Below, piece by piece: positions 14,693-46,792 of a DNA stretch of 64,000 bases. Position numbers and translations under genes: made by a program. The stretch's first letter is position 1, and each line of letters opens with the position of its first letter. The notes beneath the pieces are model-generated. The model was not told where the DNA came from. It did not search any database and worked only from the letters and a program-made list of their open reading frames with translations. Source of the stretch: a virus. The stretch spans positions 96,001 to 160,000 of the IMG/VR virus record IMGVR_UViG_3300043449_000492. One strand, 5' to 3'.

Positions 14693-15238
14693 ATGGGTAA
14701 TAATAAGTCTACAGATAAGTTCTGGTTTGATCCTTTCTCTTTTTCCAATGACATTTCAAAGGGCGCTATCGGCTTTGAACATGTGCTACAAAGATTGGCA
14801 GAAGCGAATGAGTATCTTCCAAAGATTCCAGCATATCCTCCTTACAATGTAAAGAAAGTGGATGACGAGCATTTCGTCATTGAAATGGCTGTCGCTGGTT
14901 TTGGCAAGCATAATCTTGATATCGAACTAAAGAACGATGTGTTAACTATCTCTGGCAATACCGAAACCGAAGAAGGCGATTACCTTCATAAGGGTATTGC
15001 AAACAGAGCATTCACTCGGAAGTTTACCATCGCTGATACAGTGGAGGTTAAGAATGCAGAACTTGTTAACGGTATGCTCAAAATCTTTCTTGAACGCTTT
15101 GTCCCCGAGGAGAAGAAAGCGAAGAAGATCGATATCCTGGATCCATTCGGCTTTCAGGAAACGACGAAGCAACTGTTAACAGAGAGTGCTAAAGTATGGT
15201 CCGATCTTGTCGGCGTGAAAAAAGAAGAAACTAAATAA
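14693..15238 (+). CDS. Small heat-shock protein Hsp20 (IbpA-like)
   Basis: YPPYNV, IEMAVAGF, YLHKGIANRAFTRKF, AELVNGML. sigma70 promoter near 14608-14636. Confidence 0.93.
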   Translation: MGNNKSTDKFWFDPFSFSNDISKGAIGFEHVLQRLAEANEYLPKIPAYPPYNVKKVDDEHFVIEMAVAGFGKHNLDIELKNDVLTISGNTETEEGDYLHKGIANRAFTRKFTIADTVEVKNAELVNGMLKIFLERFVPEEKKAKKIDILDPFGFQETTKQLLTESAKVWSDLVGVKKEETK

Positions 15239-15304
15239 GATTGACATGGCTGGGGCCTCTGTTGAAAGACACGCCCCAGTCTTCATTTCATAATGGAGTA
15301 TAAA

Positions 15305-15886
15305 ATGCAATACACTTTTGTTGATGGTCCCCTCGGTGAAGATTACGAATCCCCTCCAGTTCATGTCTCAGAAGAAAATCTAAGAAAGTATGGAACAGGT
15401 AATGTGTTTGTTGAAACAGGCACGTATCTTGGCGAAACTGTAGATTTGGTTCTTAAGACAAAGCTATTCAAGACCATTCATACAATCGAACTAAATGATA
15501 CGCTTTATAATGACGCAGTTGCAAAGTATAAGAATGAAAAGATCGTCAAGCTATGGCATGGTGACTCTATTGATTCTCTCAAGGATATTGTATCAAAGCT
15601 AAAAGAGCCTGCAACATTCTGGCTAGATGCTCATGCGTCTGGAGAACTTGTTGGTGGTAAGTCTGGCGGTTCTCCTGTTCTCGATGAGCTAGACATTATT
15701 GCTTCTTCTCCAATCAAGACACATACAATCATTATTGACGATTGCCGCCTGTTTGGTTCTGCTGAATGGTCCTTTGTCAAGAAGGAAGATGCAATTGAAC
15801 GCATCATGAAGATCAATCCAGATTACAAGCTTCATTATCTTGATGGTCATATTCGCAATGACGTTCTGTGGGCAACAGTAAAGTGA
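15305..15886 (+). CDS. SAM-dependent methyltransferase-like protein
   Basis: FVETGTYLG, GDS, FWLDAH, IIDD.R.F. Confidence 0.7.
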   Translation: MQYTFVDGPLGEDYESPPVHVSEENLRKYGTGNVFVETGTYLGETVDLVLKTKLFKTIHTIELNDTLYNDAVAKYKNEKIVKLWHGDSIDSLKDIVSKLKEPATFWLDAHASGELVGGKSGGSPVLDELDIIASSPIKTHTIIIDDCRLFGSAEWSFVKKEDAIERIMKINPDYKLHYLDGHIRNDVLWATVK

Positions 15887-41220: not shown

Positions 41221-41248
41221 TTGACATTCCTTAGCGACCGTATATAAT
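41221..41248 (+). promoter_or_regulatory. sigma70-type promoter at the start of the tRNA region
   Basis: TTGACATTCC...TATAAT, 16-nt spacer. Confidence 0.7.
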
Positions 41249-41367: not shown

Positions 41368-41444
41368 GGTCCCGTAGCTCAGCCGGATAGAGCATCTGCC
41401 TTCTAAGCAGAGGGTCGCACGTTCGAATCGTGCCGGGATCGCCA
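41368..41444 (+). tRNA. tRNA-Arg(UCU)
   Basis: Canonical cloverleaf, loop CTTCTAA, encoded CCA. Confidence 0.95.
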
Positions 41445-41448
41445 ATTT

Positions 41449-41540
41449 GGGGGTGGGTGTTGGTACACAGGGAGGCCTTATAAGCCTTCTAGCGGCAGAT
41501 TACCGTTCTCGACAGGGTTCGAATCCTTGCACCCCTACCA
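41449..41540 (+). tRNA. Atypical tRNA with UAU anticodon (Ile by anticodon) and long variable arm
   Basis: GGGGGTG/CACCCCT acceptor, loop CTTATAA, T-arm CAGGG-TTCGAAT-CCTTG, ACCA end. Confidence 0.75.
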
Positions 41541-41632
41541 AAAAAGTGAGAAAAAACGTAAAAATATCGCTTGACATTACTGTTTGTGTGCTATATAATG
41601 ATGCAACAATGAAACTTCGGAGAGTGCGAACG

Positions 41633-41827
41633 ATGAAGGACGAGAACGTAAAGAGAGAATCCTACTGGATAGTCGAAATGGCTCAGGGTGAGAAGGTATT
41701 ATACCAGAACACCTTTAAGAATTTCGAGTCTGCTTGGACCAAGTATGAGTCCTTCAAAGAGAAGGATATAAAGGGTAAGGCTTCTGTCATGTTACAGAGA
41801 CGTTACAAGGAATACAAGATAGCTTAA
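41633..41827 (+). CDS. Hypothetical protein
   Basis: GGAG RBS; promoter TTGACA..TATAAT at 41571-41599. Confidence 0.65.
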   Translation: MKDENVKRESYWIVEMAQGEKVLYQNTFKNFESAWTKYESFKEKDIKGKASVMLQRRYKEYKIA

Positions 41828-41968
41828 CTGACATGAAGGACGGTACCCGTATGCGAAACGGGGAGAACATTCTGGGTGATCGCACATCTGGCATTAAGTA
41901 TCCGTTAAACCCTTTGGTAAATGACGGAGCGTTTCTTCTTCTTAATGCGTATAAATGGAGATAGTGAA

Positions 41969-42211
41969 ATGAAGTATGCAATTATTGGTATCGCTATGTT
42001 AGTCTCGGGTGCTGCTTTCGCTGCTCCGTATGGCACTTACCAGAATCCTGTTCAGGATCCGCCGTTCACTGGTGATTGGTCCGTTCCAGTTCATCGTGGC
42101 TTGTATTGTGTCCAGGGAACTTGGCACTATGGTTGGCTTCGTCCTTGGGAAGGTCAGATGGTTGTGAAGTCGTCATGTGGAACCGCTGTTTATCAGGTTC
42201 CTGTTAACTAA
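41969..42211 (+). CDS. Secreted hypothetical protein
   Basis: Signal peptide ending AAFA; GGAG RBS. Confidence 0.7.
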   Translation: MKYAIIGIAMLVSGAAFAAPYGTYQNPVQDPPFTGDWSVPVHRGLYCVQGTWHYGWLRPWEGQMVVKSSCGTAVYQVPVN

Positions 42212-42217
42212 TACAAT

Positions 42218-42292
42218 GGGGCATGAGTCGGACGCTAAGGCGCAGGACTGCAAATCCTTGAGAACCCGGTTGAACTCCGGGATGCCCCTCCA
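42218..42292 (+). tRNA. tRNA-Cys(GCA)
   Basis: Loop CTGCAAA, U73, CCA. Confidence 0.88.
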
Positions 42293-42398
42293 TTTCTTTC
42301 ATAAGTGTTCTCGCCTAGAGAACATGGTTGCAAACTTGCTAGGTCGTTTCTTGGATAAGCTGAAATAGGCAAAGCGGAGAACACTTATGAAAGAAATG
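42291..42398 (+). repeat. 22-bp perfect inverted repeat enclosing 64 nt (candidate structured RNA)
   Basis: CATTTCTTTCATAAGTGTTCTC ... GAGAACACTTATGAAAGAAATG. Confidence 0.85.
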
Positions 42399-42403
42399 AA
42401 CAT

Positions 42404-42479
42404 TTCCCGATAGCTCAGTTGGTAGAGCAAGCGACTGTTAATCGCTGTGTCCCTGGTTCGAGCCCAGGTCGGGAAGCCA
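42404..42479 (+). tRNA. tRNA-Asn(GUU)
   Basis: Loop CTGTTAA, G73, CCA. Confidence 0.95.
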
Positions 42480-42551
42480 ATACTATAGTGGTCTACTGGA
42501 ATGATGCCACGTCGGATAAGCAAGCAACGGCAAGTTGCTTCACCACTATAT

Positions 42552-42627
42552 GGGTCCATAGCTCAATAGGTAGAGCAAGGGTCTTTTAAACCCAAGGTTC
42601 CGAGTTCAAATCTCGGTGGACCCTCCA
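42552..42627 (+). tRNA. tRNA-Lys(UUU)
   Basis: Loop CTTTTAA, CCA. Confidence 0.92.
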
Positions 42628-42628
42628 T

Positions 42629-42704
42629 GCTGGTATAGCTCAGACGGTAGAGCAGTTGCCTCGTAAGCATCAGGTCGTGGGTTCGATTCCTGCTACCAGC
42701 ACCA
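42629..42704 (+). tRNA. tRNA-Thr(CGU)
   Basis: Loop CTCGTAA, CCA. Confidence 0.92.
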
Positions 42705-42719
42705 CTTTTATAGAGAGTA

Positions 42720-43259
42720 ATGAGTATAAAGCATAAACATCACATTATACCGAGGCATATGGGCGGAACAGATGATTCAACAAACATCGTTGACCTGACG
42801 ATAGAGGAACATGCCGAAGCGCACAGAATCTTGTATGAGAAATATGGTAATGAGAAAGATAAACTTGCTTGGCAAGGATTGCTTGGTCTTGTTCCAAAAG
42901 CTGATATTATGCAAAGTCTTCATCGATTAGGTAGAGAGAAGGCAGATAACATTATAAAAGAAAAATATGGAGTATCTAATCCAGGTCAGTTGTTACATAA
43001 TAGACAAAGAACCTCGGAACAAAATAGAAGACTACATAAAGAAGGTAGAATGTCCGCTCCTGATTGGACGGGCAAAAAACATAGAGAAGAAACGAAACGA
43101 TTGATTGGAGCGAAAAACTCAGTGATACAATCGGGGAGTGGAAACTCACAGTTCGGTACTATGTGGATAACAGATGGCAAACAGAGTAAAAAGATAAAAA
43201 GAGTAGATGCTATACCCGAAGGATGGTATAGAGGTAGAGTTATTGCGGACGTGGTATAG
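42720..43259 (+). mobile_element. Free-standing HNH homing endonuclease with NUMOD-type C-terminus
   Basis: [13 protein letters not shown]...N...LT.EEHAEAH; [25 protein letters not shown]. Confidence 0.88.
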
Positions 43260-43320
43260 ATAGATGTGCCCTAGACTTCCAATCTAGAGAGGACCAGAGC
43301 GTTACTGGCCGTCCGCTCCA
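43245..43320 (+). tRNA. tRNA-Gly(UCC), non-canonical T-loop
   Basis: GCGGACG/CGTCCGC, loop CTTCCAA, U73, CCA; T-loop AGCGTTA. Confidence 0.85.
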
Positions 43321-43532
43321 ATAACCATCATAGGAGTTGAACGCCCTATGGTCACTATATATTCTCTGAGTTGTCGAGGTATATAGACATGAGTATCTGG
43401 CTACTCGGAGGTCCAGAAGACAACTCGTCTTATCAGTTCAATAATCTGCCACAACGAAATAGTGGCTGGGAGATAGTAGTAACTCCCGACGAGTTCGTCC
43501 ATGGGGCCGACGTTAAATGTCCCCACCAGTTT

Positions 43533-43607
43533 AGCGGGTGGGTGGTTTAGTATCACAGGTGCCTCATACGCACCTAGAAGTGGGGGCAGATCCCACACCC
43601 GCTTCCA
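43533..43607 (+). tRNA. tRNA with CAU anticodon (Met; Ile2 not excluded), non-canonical T-loop
   Basis: AGCGGGT/ACCCGCT, loop CTCATAC, T-arm GTGGG-GGCAGAT-CCCAC, CCA. Confidence 0.75.
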
Positions 43608-43715
43608 ATAACCGTGCTTGGCCCGTCACGGCATATAAATCTTTCGGGGGTCAACATTAGGGGTTCGCCTTCCATCGTGAGCGCCTTGTGTCAATGGCTA
43701 ACGGGCCGCCAGTTT

Positions 43716-43789
43716 ATCGGTGTGGTGTAATGGTAGCACAAGGGTCTCCAAAACTCTTAGTTGGGGTTCGAATCCTCACTCCGGTGCCA
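43716..43789 (+). tRNA. tRNA-Trp(CCA)
   Basis: Loop CTCCAAA, G73, CCA. Confidence 0.9.
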
Positions 43790-43792
43790 GTA

Positions 43793-43891
43793 TTATAATG
43801 TGAGTGGATAACTATCAGGACGCTGCCGTTGAAGTGGGATATCGGGTTGATCGCCGAGAAGACATGGAGGGGTTATCCACTCTCATTATAA
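43793..43891 (+). repeat. About 20-bp inverted repeat (one mismatch) enclosing about 60 nt (candidate structured RNA)
   Basis: TTATAATGTGAGTGGATAAC ... GTTATCCACTCTCATTATAA. Confidence 0.8.
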
Positions 43892-43896
43892 TATAT

Positions 43897-43974
43897 CGGG
43901 GTGTAGCGCAGTCTGGTTAGCGTGGCTGATTTGGAGTCAGTAGGTCGCAGGTTCGAATCCTGCTACCCCGACCA
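43897..43974 (+). tRNA. tRNA-Pro(UGG)
   Basis: C1:G72, A73, loop TTTGGAG. Confidence 0.95.
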
Positions 43975-43992
43975 ACAGAAGAGGATAATTAA

Positions 43993-44178
43993 ATGTTTGA
44001 GATTACAGAACAGACAAAGGTCGCAGCAGTGGAAGCAATGCGTGAAGCACTTCTATCAGGTGTAAATGAAGACGTTCTTAAGAGCGTTTTGGCAGGACAT
44101 GAAGCTGACTTTGATGCTCGTCTTGGTGCTGCTTTCGATGCTGCTGTTGTTTGTGTTAAGGCACAGTTCGGCATGTAA
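43993..44178 (+). CDS. Hypothetical protein
   Basis: GAGGA RBS; typical codon usage. Confidence 0.65.
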   Translation: MFEITEQTKVAAVEAMREALLSGVNEDVLKSVLAGHEADFDARLGAAFDAAVVCVKAQFGM

Positions 44179-44187
44179 TGATTATGT

Positions 44188-44273
44188 GGATCGTGGGCAG
44201 GATGGTAATGCAGCGGTTTGCTAAACCGTAGAACCGCAAGGTTCAATTGGTTCGACTCCAATACGATCCGCCA
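44188..44273 (+). tRNA. tRNA-Ser(GCU)
   Basis: Loop TTGCTAA, long variable arm, G73. Confidence 0.92.
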
Positions 44274-44357
44274 GGAGGATAGCGTTCATGGTGAGCGAAG
44301 CGTCTTGAAAACGCTGCCCCCGAAAGGGTGATGGTTCGATTCCTTTATCCTCCGCCA
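44274..44357 (+). tRNA. tRNA-Ser(UGA)
   Basis: Loop CTTGAAA, variable arm CCC-GAAA-GGG, G73; directly abuts the previous tRNA. Confidence 0.9.
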
Positions 44358-44607
44358 AAGATTAGGTCAAAAGAATGCTAAAGTTACTACTTGTGTTATG
44401 GATATCAATAGGGATTTTAGCATTTCTCTTGAGCCTAGGAGATAGATAGATGTAGCATGTATAGCAGGGCCTCCAAGCCTAGACATGCCTGACCGAAGCA
44501 CAGCCACCTTGATTGATCGTCTATGGGTGCGTCGAGGCCTAGGAAGGTGGGGCATACGATCTGACCCTTAGAAGGAGTAGCGCCCTTCCTCTATCTTATA
44601 AGTTTAT

Positions 44608-44683
44608 GGATCCTTAGCTCAGTTGGTAGAGCGTCTGCTTTACACGCAGAATGTCGGCAGTTCGAACCTGTCAGGATCTACCA
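44608..44683 (+). tRNA. tRNA-Val(UAC)
   Basis: Loop TTTACAC, CCA. Confidence 0.95.
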
Positions 44684-44687
44684 ATAT

Positions 44688-44764
44688 GCCCTTCTAGCCC
44701 AACTGGCAGAGGCGTCAGTCTTAGGAACTGAAGGTTCTCCGTTCGAATCGGAGGAGGGGCACCA
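44688..44764 (+). tRNA. tRNA-Leu(UAG), short variable loop
   Basis: Loop CTTAGGA, A73. Confidence 0.9.
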
Positions 44765-44765
44765 A

Positions 44766-44841
44766 GGCCTTGTAGCTCAATCGGGAGAGCGCCAGCTTGT
44801 CACGCTGGAGGTAGTCGGATCGAAACCGATCAAGGTCGCCA
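44766..44841 (+). tRNA. tRNA-Asp(GUC)
   Basis: Loop TTGTCAC, G73. Confidence 0.93.
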
Positions 44842-44917
44842 GGGGGATTAGCTCAGTTGGGAGAGCGTCTGATTTGCATTCAGAAGGTCATCGGTTCGAT
44901 CCCGGTATCCTCCACCA
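44842..44917 (+). tRNA. tRNA-Ala(UGC)
   Basis: G3:U70, loop TTTGCAT, A73. Confidence 0.95.
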
Positions 44918-44923
44918 GTTTAT

Positions 44924-44998
44924 AGACCTGTAGCTCAGAGGCAGAGCAGAGGACTCTTAATCCTCGTGTCGGGATTTCAAAATTCCCCAGGTCTACCA
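44924..44998 (+). tRNA. tRNA-Lys(CUU)
   Basis: Loop CTCTTAA, CCA. Confidence 0.9.
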
Positions 44999-45003
44999 AT
45001 AAC

Positions 45004-45060
45004 GGGCAAGTGCCAGGGGCATTCTAGATAGATGGGGTTCGAGTCCCCTCTTGTCCACCA
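45004..45060 (+). ncRNA. 57-nt anticodon-less tRNA-like RNA with alanine identity
   Basis: GGGCAAG/CTTGTCC (G3:U70), A73-CCA, T-arm GGGG-TTCGAGT-CCCC; only about 22 nt replace the D and anticodon arms. Confidence 0.65.
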
Positions 45061-45064
45061 TTTC

Positions 45065-45139
45065 GGCTCCATCGTCTAACGGTTAGGACAGCGGCCTTTC
45101 AAGCCGTCAATACGAGTTCGAATCTCGTTGGAGTCACCA
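45065..45139 (+). tRNA. tRNA-Glu(UUC)
   Basis: Loop CTTTCAA, CCA. Confidence 0.93.
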
Positions 45140-45208
45140 TTAAATAAGAGTTGCCACGCTTCCTCTATGCTTAACGAGATAGATAGCGCACCCGGCAACT
45201 TACTTTTC

Positions 45209-45284
45209 GCTTCTCTAGTGTAGGTGATCCGCACGACTGTTTGAAGCACAGTAGGACTGAGTTTGATTCTTAGGGGAAGCACCA
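45209..45284 (+). tRNA. tRNA-Phe(GAA), atypical loops
   Basis: ACTGT-TTGAAGC-ACAGT, GCTTCTC/GGGAAGC acceptor, ACCA. Confidence 0.75.
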
Positions 45285-45444
45285 TGAAACATGTAGGCGG
45301 TATTATAGGAGCAACAAAACAAGTTGACTTCTATTGTGAAGTGCCATTGAGAATAAAAAACAACAATCCTATTAACTGGAATCCAGGCATTTATCTCGAT
45401 AAAAGAACATGCTATCCAGTTTTGATTATTGTTCAAGAAAGATT

Positions 45445-45522
45445 GCCCTCGTAGCCCAATCTGGTAGAGGCACATGACTCAAAATTATGTAGTTGTCGGT
45501 TCGACTCCGACCGAGGGTACCA
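45445..45522 (+). tRNA. tRNA-Leu(CAA), short variable loop
   Basis: Loop CTCAAAA, A73. Confidence 0.88.
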
Positions 45523-45525
45523 ATT

Positions 45526-45602
45526 GCTTCTGTAGCTCAACTGAATAGAGCATCGGTCTTCGAAACCGAGGGTTGTGGGTTTGAATCCTACCAGGAGCTC
45601 CA
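45526..45602 (+). tRNA. tRNA-Arg(UCG)
   Basis: TCGGT-CTTCGAA-ACCGA, CCA. Confidence 0.9.
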
Positions 45603-45607
45603 TTTTT

Positions 45608-45681
45608 GCTGGCGTGGTGTAAAGGAAGCACTACTGTTTGTGGAACAGTTAGACTAGGATCGATACCTGGCGCCAGTACCA
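45608..45681 (+). tRNA. tRNA-His(GUG), alphaproteobacterial type
   Basis: Loop TTGTGGA, G1:U72, A73, T at position -1. Confidence 0.88.
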
Positions 45682-45747
45682 GGAATATATTGACTTTCTT
45701 CTATTCCTATTGTATAATGAAACATAATGTGAAAAAGAGAGGAATAG

Positions 45748-46218
45748 ATGAAGAAGGTATGGGTATTTGATATTGACGGAACGCTTGCGGATAATGAGCA
45801 TCGGCAGCATCACTTAGATGGTAAAAAGAACTGGGACGCTTTCTTTGCGGAACAGCATAAGGATGAGCCATACCAGGCAGTTCTAGATGTTCTTCATGCT
45901 CTCGCTTTTGATCGCTGCAAGGTGCTTGGTGATAGAGTTATCATTGTTACTGCCCGTGACGAGCGGTTCCGTGATGATACACTTGATTGGCTGCATAAGC
46001 ATATCGAGTTTGATATATCCGATAGTGTCTATATGCGTCCTCTGGGTCATCGTGGTAATGACGATGTTCTAAAGGTCGATATCATCAAGCAGTGGCTTGT
46101 TGATCATCCTGGTTATAAAGTTGGCGCCATCTTTGATGATCGTCACCGTATCATTGATGCGTTTCGTAACGAAGGTTGGTATACCTTCGAGTGCAACCAG
46201 GCTCGTAAAGAGTTTTAA
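45748..46218 (+). CDS. HAD phosphatase resembling the 3'-phosphatase domain of T4 polynucleotide kinase
   Basis: VFDIDGTLA, IIVTAR, YMRP....D...K, IFDDR. Own sigma70 promoter near 45690-45718. Confidence 0.85.
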   Translation: MKKVWVFDIDGTLADNEHRQHHLDGKKNWDAFFAEQHKDEPYQAVLDVLHALAFDRCKVLGDRVIIVTARDERFRDDTLDWLHKHIEFDISDSVYMRPLGHRGNDDVLKVDIIKQWLVDHPGYKVGAIFDDRHRIIDAFRNEGWYTFECNQARKEF

Positions 46219-46294
46219 TGTCCTGTAGCTCAATCGGTAGAGCGCAGTCCTGATAAGACTGAGGTAGTTGGATCGAAGCCAACCAGGACAACCA
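46219..46294 (+). tRNA. tRNA-Ile(GAU)
   Basis: Loop CTGATAA, A73. Confidence 0.93.
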
Positions 46295-46298
46295 ACAT

Positions 46299-46390
46299 GC
46301 GTGGGCGACAACGACGGTGGTGTTGTGACGGACTGTAAATCCGTTCCCTTTGCGGTAACATTGTAGGTTCGACTCCTACCCCACGCACCA
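46299..46390 (+). tRNA. tRNA-Tyr(GUA), extended D-arm
   Basis: ACGGA-CTGTAAA-TCCGT, long variable region, ACCA. Confidence 0.85.
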
Positions 46391-46406
46391 AACTTGGAGA
46401 AGTAAA

Positions 46407-46709
46407 ATGAAAAAGTTAATCGCTGCTATTATTGCTCTTGCTTTACTCGCTACGCCAGCTCAGGCATGGTATCGTGGTGGATATGGAGGTTACGGCTGGC
46501 GTGGTCCTGTCTATAATAACTACAATTATTATGGTGGTTGGGGTGGAGGCTGGAACAACGGCTGGGGTGGTTACGGTGCTGCTGCTGGAATCGGTCTCGG
46601 CTTAGGATTGCTTGGTGGAGCTATTGCTTCTCAACAGCGTTATTATGGTGCTGCTAATTGTCCTGTGTATGATTCATGGGGTTACATTGTAGCCTATACT
46701 TACTGCTAA
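46407..46709 (+). CDS. Secreted Gly/Tyr/Trp-rich protein
   Basis: Signal peptide ending PAQA, GW/GY repeats, glycine zipper GIGLGLGLLGGAIA. Confidence 0.8.
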   Translation: MKKLIAAIIALALLATPAQAWYRGGYGGYGWRGPVYNNYNYYGGWGGGWNNGWGGYGAAAGIGLGLGLLGGAIASQQRYYGAANCPVYDSWGYIVAYTYC

Positions 46710-46717
46710 AGGTTTAT

Positions 46718-46792
46718 TCCCCTGTCGTCTAATTGGTAGGACGCTAGATTCTGGTTCTTGCTATCTAGGTTCGAGTCCTAGCGGGGGATCCA
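46718..46792 (+). tRNA. tRNA-Gln(CUG)
   Basis: Loop TTCTGGT, U1:A72, CCA. Confidence 0.9.

Follow-up and report, generated by a model that had tools for sequence, protein, structure and literature searches.

A conserved, anticodon-less alanine-type mini-tRNA gene in the tRNA array of a T4-like phage

Minihelix-Ala, made in the laboratory since 1989, has served as an argument for an acceptor-stem 'operational RNA code' older than the anticodon. In phage T4, the stable RNAs C and D are small non-tRNA RNAs that lie in the T4-type tRNA cluster and are processed together with the tRNAs. The minihelix-Ala and microhelix-Ala design is alanylated in vitro (reviewed in PMC9976931), and the bacterial alanine identity set consists of A73, G2:C71, G3:U70, G4:C69 and G20, with no element in the anticodon (PMC9976931). 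RNase P cleaves model substrates made of an acceptor and a T stem-loop (PMC11143913). For mycobacteriophage DS6A, a tmRNA that consists of the tRNA-like domain (TLD) only is on record (tmRNA Website; Hudson, Lau and Williams 2014, PMC4131195); the paper notes strong inhibition of tmRNA by a comparable molecule, which may act through titration of SmpB. Beyond DS6A, our literature search found no account of natural phage anticodon-less alanine mini-tRNAs, and we found no paper describing natural genes of the tRNA-derived design considered below.

Here we describe a 57-nt gene, hereafter the mini, that sits among the tRNA genes of a phage and carries the alanine marks of an acceptor stem with neither anticodon nor anticodon arm. 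The window analysed is a 64,000-nt stretch, bases 96001–160000 of an IMG/VR virus record that is complete, 169,069 bp long and bounded by direct terminal repeats; coordinates refer to this window unless a genome or contig is named.

The mini-tRNA gene and its array

The phage is a freshwater, T4-like virus (genome 40.7% G+C) in which genes for a UvsX-like recombinase and a DnaB-like helicase adjoin a tRNA array at 41368–46792. ARAGORN finds 23 tRNAs in this array, every one on the + strand; the mini is present once in the 169-kb genome. The site scan gave no promoter-like or terminator-like site beside the mini, and we infer from this that it is co-transcribed with the array. The features on which the analysis draws are the following:

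41221–41248, + strand: promoter-like site, sigma-70-type (12/12), upstream of the first tRNA of the array; a consensus match only
44608–45284, + strand: tRNA block around the mini, in the order Val, Leu, Asp, Ala, Lys, mini, Glu, 69-nt hairpin, Phe (ARAGORN)
44842–44917, + strand: ordinary phage tRNA-Ala(UGC), acceptor GGGGGAT/ATCCTCC, with an acceptor and T arm unlike those of the mini (ARAGORN and sequence)
44999–45003, + strand: 5-nt leader from the CCA of tRNA-Lys(ctt) to G1 of the mini, with a presumed RNase P site before 45004
45004–45060, + strand: mini-tRNA gene, 57 nt, comprising acceptor stem, shrunken D-like region, linker, T arm, A73 and CCA (sequence; 77.2 bits with covariance model R1)
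45004–45010, + strand: acceptor 5′ strand GGGCAAG, pairing 7/7 with 45050–45056
45011–45021, + strand: shrunken D-arm region UGCC-AGG-GGCA (DNA TGCC-AGG-GGCA), its GG kept in 6/6 homologs
45022–45032, + strand: linker TTCTAGATAGA, with the invariant motif A-UYCUAGRU from the alignment and UCUAGA at 45023–45028
45033–45049, + strand: T arm U-GGGG / UUCGAGU / CCCC-U, four G:C pairs and a T.T mismatch at 49:65
45050–45060, + strand: acceptor 3′ strand CTTGTCC (45050–45056, U70 at 45054), A73 at 45057 and encoded CCA at 45058–45060
45061–45064, + strand: 4-nt trailer from the CCA of the mini to tRNA-Glu(ttc) (sequence, ARAGORN)

The first-pass annotation had described an anticodon-less 57-nt unit with a 7-bp acceptor, A73, CCA and a canonical T-loop, spaced like a tRNA, and all of these are found. 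The acceptor pairs are G1:C72, G2:C71, G3:T70, C4:G69, A5:T68, A6:T67 and G7:C66. The mini lies in the 66 nt that separate tRNA-Lys(ctt) from tRNA-Glu(ttc), and its spacers of 5 and 4 nt resemble the 0–6 nt between neighbouring tRNAs. Between acceptor and T arm, 22 nt take the place of the D arm, the anticodon arm and the variable loop. The TGCC/GGCA micro-hairpin and 11 further nucleotides that the same annotation placed here are indeed in the sequence; the hairpin is not conserved, being formed by the window copy alone with no covariation support among homologs. An alternative central hairpin, GGR/YYC, is 78% paired in the homolog alignment with zero double changes, and a 12-nt conserved single strand lies directly 5′ of the T arm.

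Such a configuration is rare by chance. A scanner demanding a 7/7 acceptor, a T arm, G3:U70, ACCA and a total length of ≤62 nt finds one in the real window, compared with 0.005 per 64-kb window over 200 dinucleotide shuffles. Folded singly, the sequence shows no unusual stability (z = −0.71), with the tRNA-like fold 1 kcal/mol above the minimum free energy. Cofolding of the mini, which contains the palindrome UCUAGA, favours a dimer, as cofolding does for any hairpin RNA, and so carries no weight for a homodimer. Two other identities were considered and rejected: a suppressor tRNA reading UAG through the CUA of the linker is ruled out, as the mini has no anticodon stem and U33 varies among homologs, and an attP-type tRNA fragment is ruled out by the presence of both acceptor strands and the T4-like nature of the phage.

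Other parts of the array also depart from the standard tRNA complement. A tRNA-Cys(GCA)-like gene at 42218–42289, missed by ARAGORN, scores 39.6 bits with the Rfam tRNA model and has an odd D arm, the T-loop UUGAACU and no encoded CCA. The 92-nt tRNA at 41449–41540, with anticodon UAU, has a long extra arm and is thus class-II shaped; ARAGORN labels it tRNA-Ile(tat), and its best Rfam model is tRNA-Sec (30.5 bits). The spacers at 43790–43896, 45140–45208 and 42480–42551 form long-stemmed hairpins stabler than shuffles (z = −4.9, −3.7 and −2.2, respectively), and the tRNA arrays of relatives contain similar 65–110-nt structured spacers of no assigned kind; structured inter-tRNA spacers of this sort may be further small RNAs. 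A 250-nt stretch within the array, 44358–44607, gave no tRNA and no Rfam match, and its sole open reading frame (ORF; 62 amino acids) is on the minus strand. The motif GATAGATAG / AGATAGAT occurs on the + strand at 44441 and 45178, in two array spacers, and at 45026, in the linker of the mini.

The array also encloses, at 45748–46218, a 156-amino-acid phosphatase-only homolog of polynucleotide kinase-phosphatase (Pfam HAD_PNKP, 6.4e-18) that has its own promoter-like site (11/12) at 45690–45718. Judged from array spacing, relatives without the mini seem to keep this ORF in the same slot. In the related phage L030, a tRNA at L030:2717–2790 has the anticodon CUA and receives the ARAGORN label Pyl, which hints at amber suppression in that lineage.

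Homologs, descent and distribution

We searched for homologs among 80 relatives retrieved through the helicase, listing all inter-tRNA gaps that had no explanation, and then by pattern scans of IMG/VR and JGI metagenomes followed by covariance model R1. Two of the search patterns left the 3′ strand free, so that U70 and A73 were not imposed; a 'GGGC' start was. The resulting family comprises six distinct sequences on phage and metagenome contigs (the window copy, the L013-type, L111, L323, L332 and L344), with R1 scores of 39–77 bits. The L013 homolog lies between tRNA-Tyr and tRNA-Gln, is likewise 57 nt long and has the acceptor GGGCGAG/CTCGTCC with G3:T70, A73 and CCA; the L013-type sequence is identical on contigs of five different samples. 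Gatagata repeats follow just 3′ of the homolog in L323.

Outside this family, searches for the mini as a whole came up empty. Phage records of INPHARED held no whole-element homolog, the best partial matches being to the 3′ 33 nt of annotated tRNA-Ala genes; the family pattern met only archaeal tRNAs and chance sites in cellular genome representatives; and an exact pattern of the 3′ half of the mini had no match in IMG/VR.

Several features of the family speak for maintenance. First, G1:C72, G2:C71, G3:U70 and A73 are invariant in all six members, which bears out the conservation of G3:U70 that the first-pass annotation had proposed to check with a covariance model. Second, acceptor cells are 97.6% paired in the six-sequence alignment A3, with 9 double-sided changes at pairs 4–7, and acceptor covariation is 0.444, compared with 0.114 in shuffles and ≤0.167 with slid partners, a pairing statistic that is inflated because members were recognised partly by pairing. 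Third, the linker motif is conserved in the window copy, the L013-type and L111, all of which were found without using it. In the T arm, pair 50:64 covaries among homologs, occurring as G:C and U:A, and pair 49:65 is unpaired in three of the five scored. CCA is encoded in half of the six, and L344 has one acceptor mismatch. Taken as a comparison of sequences, these data show the mini to be a real, maintained phage gene, with both its structure and its alanine marks under selection.

They also bear on the idea that the mini is a decaying or neutral tRNA-Ala remnant, an internal deletion product that is still processed through its retained RNase P signals and has no function. Descent from tRNA-Ala is clear (see below), a near-identical strain and most relatives do without the mini, and signs of wear can be pointed to: the T.T mismatch in the T stem, the acceptor mismatch of L344 and the three homologs without CCA. 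Yet six diverged copies have held their acceptor pairing through the 9 compensatory changes with an invariant G:U at 3:70 only, the identical 57-nt sequence recurs across five samples, and the armless state is common to all homologs and has thus persisted through much divergence. Full-length tRNAs among the homologs would have meant a recent deletion, according to the first-pass annotation; every homolog found is a mini. Together with the rarity of armless G3:C70 units among the matches listed (see below), this makes a remnant improbable.

The alignment with full tRNA-Ala(UGC) genes places the linker of the mini on the base of the anticodon stem (positions 27–29 and 41–43) followed by the variable loop, and UGCC-AGG-GGCA on a shrunken D arm that keeps GG. 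The GGGC/GTCC acceptor is found in many tRNA-Ala genes of related phages and not in the tRNA-Ala of the window itself. The alignment and this shared acceptor point to an origin in a phage tRNA-Ala lineage and not in a recent deletion within the neighbouring gene, in keeping with the earlier view that the mini is not a simple deleted copy of the tRNA-Ala at 44842–44917. On these alignments, the mini looks like a derivative of phage tRNA-Ala(UGC) that has lost the upper anticodon stem and loop and in which the D arm has shrunk; what it retains is the acceptor stem and T arm, part of the elbow with its GG, A73 and CCA. One relative's tRNA-Ala(UGC), at L051:16568–16643, has acceptor strands GGGCTTG and CTTGTCC; the second of these, the 3′ strand, is identical to that of the window mini, and U.U mismatches fall at 5:68 and 6:67.

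The distribution of the mini is patchy. Among five large relatives searched whole, it is present in one or two (G001, which is L013, among them) and absent from three, two of which are tmRNA-positive. In the public freshwater metagenome run X10, a contig identical over 45065–45166 joins 45001 to 45065 with one T between them; it represents a near-identical strain without exactly the unit 45002–45064, that is, a presence/absence polymorphism. In relative L030, tRNA-Lys(ctt) and tRNA-Glu(ttc) are only 4 nt apart, and the L013-type mini occupies a different array slot from that of the window mini. The X10 absence, the L030 spacing and the different L013 slot together mark the mini as an optional cassette, one tRNA slot in size. 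It is a real, selected yet dispensable phage gene.

A broader search suggests that the armless design goes with alanine. We used a class pattern, GGGC...GGTTCGANTCC...GTCCACCA, that leaves space for only 21–35 nt before the T arm. With U70, 26 of the 118 stretches listed hold a 7/7-paired unit of 53–64 nt outside tRNA calls, and the matches listed include at least 15 distinct armless G3:U70 sequences in viral contigs. Some of these units keep a full D arm and lack precisely the anticodon arm. The C70 control pattern yields units in 2 of 118 stretches listed, one of them genuinely armless (L220) and the other a tRNA-Met-like fragment; since both counts come from the matches listed, the comparison is a ratio and not a census. 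These sequence counts speak for a tie between the armless design and the alanine determinant G3:U70, and they fit selection for alanylation.

Non-alanine armless units also exist in other phages, at L169:12863–12923, L133:12820–12883, L137:1665–1733 and L220:8501–8560; examples are a GTACCAT/ATGGTAC-ACCA acceptor and a unit that has G3:C70 and keeps its D arm in full. A few such units lie in the flanks of the class loci.

Predicted processing, charging and use

How far does the mini match what alanylation and processing require? The first-pass annotation credited it with a full alanine identity set. G3:U70, A73 and G2:C71 are there; the claim of completeness goes too far, as pair 4:69 is C:G instead of G4:C69 and G20 is unassignable. 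The C:G pair recurs in five of six homologs, and C4:G69 is also found in bona fide tRNA-Ala(UGC) of related phages, which makes C:G at 4:69 probably tolerated. The mini further has the form of a minimal RNase P substrate, with a coaxial acceptor and T stem-loop, a 5′ leader and a 3′ NCCA.

From these elements we propose the following course. The mini would be transcribed within a polycistronic tRNA precursor, RNase P would cut before G1, needing only the acceptor stem and T stem-loop, and the 3′ end would be trimmed back to the encoded CCA. Host AlaRS would charge the product with alanine, reading G3:U70 and A73 and not an anticodon. The Ala-charged mini would bind EF-Tu and be unable to decode, and would act at stalled ribosomes like the tRNA-like domain of a tmRNA that has no tag, either competing for SmpB and EF-Tu or adding alanine without a tag.

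The steps of this proposal differ in strength. We infer processing and charging on good grounds: the mini is very probably a selected, processed RNA, and its alanylation is predicted with moderate confidence. The joint prediction, a charged, non-decoding effector with ribosome rescue as its single most likely use, is offered tentatively, and that the tmRNA–SmpB pathway is the target of the mini is, as a prediction taken alone, a doubtful point. It seems rather improbable that phages have repeatedly evolved, from tRNA-Ala genes, charged non-decoding 'top-half' tRNAs as trans-acting effectors of ribosome rescue.

A stalled-ribosome role is in keeping with the two-piece tmRNA that the phage itself encodes. 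This circularly permuted tmRNA of alphaproteobacterial type, at 15077–15454 of the genome (L353:1072–1408) and thus outside the window, specifies the tag AANDNAPFEGYALAA (ARAGORN) and scores 93.8 bits with tmRNA_permuted (RF04321) and 79.8 bits with alpha_tmRNA (RF01849). It is kept in relatives G001–G003 and not in G004. As G002 and G003 have the tmRNA and no mini, there is no strict linkage between the two. A gene for SmpB was looked for in the phage genome, and none was found. If the proposal is true, Ala-mini would work beside the phage tmRNA, possibly freeing stalled ribosomes or blocking host tagging and so leaving phage proteins unmarked for degradation.

Also outside the window, a lysine/arginine-rich ORF of 43 amino acids lies at genome 5147–5278 (L372:348–479). 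For this ORF, hmmscan returned only DUF7230 (E = 0.014) and phmmer against the PDB no match; Pfam ArfA had no match in the genome.

The same retained parts would also suit a decoy, or sponge, that draws off host factors directed at the acceptor ends, T arms or CCA tails of tRNAs, whether to attack or to modify them, and so protects the real tRNAs; anti-phage nucleases, nucleotidyltransferase toxins and acetyltransferase toxins acting on aminoacyl-tRNA are among such factors. Exactly the acceptor, T arm and elbow are kept, the array also holds the RNA-end-healing phosphatase HAD_PNKP, and patchy, cassette-like presence is typical of counter-defence genes. Immune effectors that cleave the tails of tRNAs are documented, as are toxins that lengthen acceptor ends (PMC12851939, PMC11541572), and phages use tRNA and tmRNA fragments against defence (PMC11662646). 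A pure tail decoy, however, would work with any identity, which leaves no reason for the invariance of G3:U70 and A73 or for the large excess of G3:U70 over G3:C70 units among the matches listed. Half of the homologs do not encode CCA, and we are aware of no defence system that targets alanine acceptors. We regard a decoy as unlikely.

Identity is also what a role in precursor processing leaves out. The mini could be a minimal substrate for RNase P, the CCA enzyme or T-arm-modifying enzymes that punctuates or tunes the precursor, the mature RNA having no role. Its mid-operon position and tRNA-like spacing suit such an element, an acceptor and T stem-loop are enough for RNase P (PMC11143913), the same array contains other structured spacers, and the best, if weak, Rfam resemblance is to mascRNA, a tRNA-like 3′-end processing signal. 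The flanking tRNAs, though, have RNase P sites of their own, and neighbours elsewhere abut at 0–6 nt without any such element; the invariant G3:U70 and A73 and the G3:U70 bias would go unexplained. A pure processing or titration element is very unlikely.

Charging, for its part, could serve an enzyme other than the ribosome. Aminoacyl-tRNA-dependent transferases read mainly the acceptor arm, and the mini, with its predicted chargeable design, might donate alanine to a non-ribosomal transferase acting on cell wall, lipid or protein, being kept off the ribosome for want of an anticodon. Clustering of neighbour genes over 16 mini lineages gave no specific partner beside the minis; what recurs is homing endonucleases and a lytic-transglycosylase-like gene common to related phages. 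The likely host type, suggested by the alphaproteobacterial-type tmRNA, is not known to us for Ala-tRNA-dependent wall bridges. Such a donor role is highly improbable. A charged, non-decoding RNA acting at stalled ribosomes remains our preferred, tentative reading.

Comparison with known RNAs

The mini falls between established classes. It has the tRNA-type 7-bp acceptor, discriminator, CCA and UUCRANY T-loop, and it is without the four-arm cloverleaf and the anticodon stem-loop. ARAGORN makes no tRNA call on it, and pieces of 65–74 nt searched with the Rfam tRNA model RF00005 had no match with E values allowed up to 10. As mini-type genes are invisible to ARAGORN and to this model, phage annotations miss them. 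No Rfam family reaches threshold for the mini, which shows weak resemblances only, to mascRNA, tmRNA and Tymo tRNA-like models.

The suggestion of the first-pass annotation that the mini mimics the tmRNA TLD does not extend to membership. It scores 10.4 bits with RF00023 and 10.6 bits with RF04321 against a cut-off of 47, and the L013-type homolog has no tmRNA match over the element itself. The RF00023 alignment covers the acceptor and T arm alone, where G3:U70, A73 and CCA are shared with the TLD. After the acceptor 5′ strand, an unpaired D-loop analogue (GGAUUCGAC type) is absent, those positions being deleted in the alignment, as is helix P2a, which in the TLD flanks the D-loop analogue and sits just 5′ of the T arm. 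In real TLDs these two elements carry SmpB contacts, which makes SmpB binding by the mini doubtful. The failed tests make it less likely that the mini is a TLD; they do not lower the chance that it could work like one.

Among known RNAs, canonical tmRNA TLDs, including that of the phage's own tmRNA, share with the mini G3:U70, A73, CCA, a T arm and the lack of an anticodon. The phage tmRNA differs in its acceptor (GGGGACG/CGTCTCC), its reduced T-loop (GGCAGUA), its D-loop analogue, its P2a and its tag frame; with an acceptor and T-loop so unlike, the mini is not a copy of the phage TLD. The TLD-only ('CDS-less') tmRNA of DS6A is similar in being phage-encoded and small, with a G3:U70 acceptor and a T arm and with neither anticodon nor tag frame. 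At 83 nt (L322:479–561), however, it retains both the D-loop analogue and P2a and reaches 34.7 bits with RF00023, whereas the mini is derived from tRNA-Ala, and its order of hairpin then linker is the topology of a tRNA, not of a TLD.

The best Rfam resemblance of the mini, 18.3 bits with mascRNA-menRNA (RF01684) against a cut-off of 42.5, is to a molecule of about 60 nt from MALAT1 that is cloverleaf-like, has a poor or missing anticodon arm and is released by RNase P. In contrast to the mini, mascRNA is eukaryotic and has no alanine identity, nor is it, to our knowledge, charged. The T4 stable RNAs C and D are larger than the mini, and we know of no alanine acceptor identity in them.

The closest design is synthetic. 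Like minihelix-Ala and microhelix-Ala, the mini joins an acceptor to a T arm in one helix, carries G3:U70 and A73 and is without an anticodon; minihelix-Ala is a laboratory construct of 12 bp and a loop, whereas the mini is a natural, conserved gene. The mini has 22–24 extra nt, namely the D-arm remnant with its GG and the conserved linker, so that the tRNA elbow is probably kept. If the predictions above are right, the mini would be a natural counterpart of a tag-less tmRNA, independent in origin, and a second, tmRNA-independent route to an anticodon-less alanine acceptor. It would point to unexplored phage manipulation of translation, ribosome rescue or tRNA-directed immunity. And a natural, conserved and recurrent mini gene would show biology using the chargeable top half of a tRNA alone.
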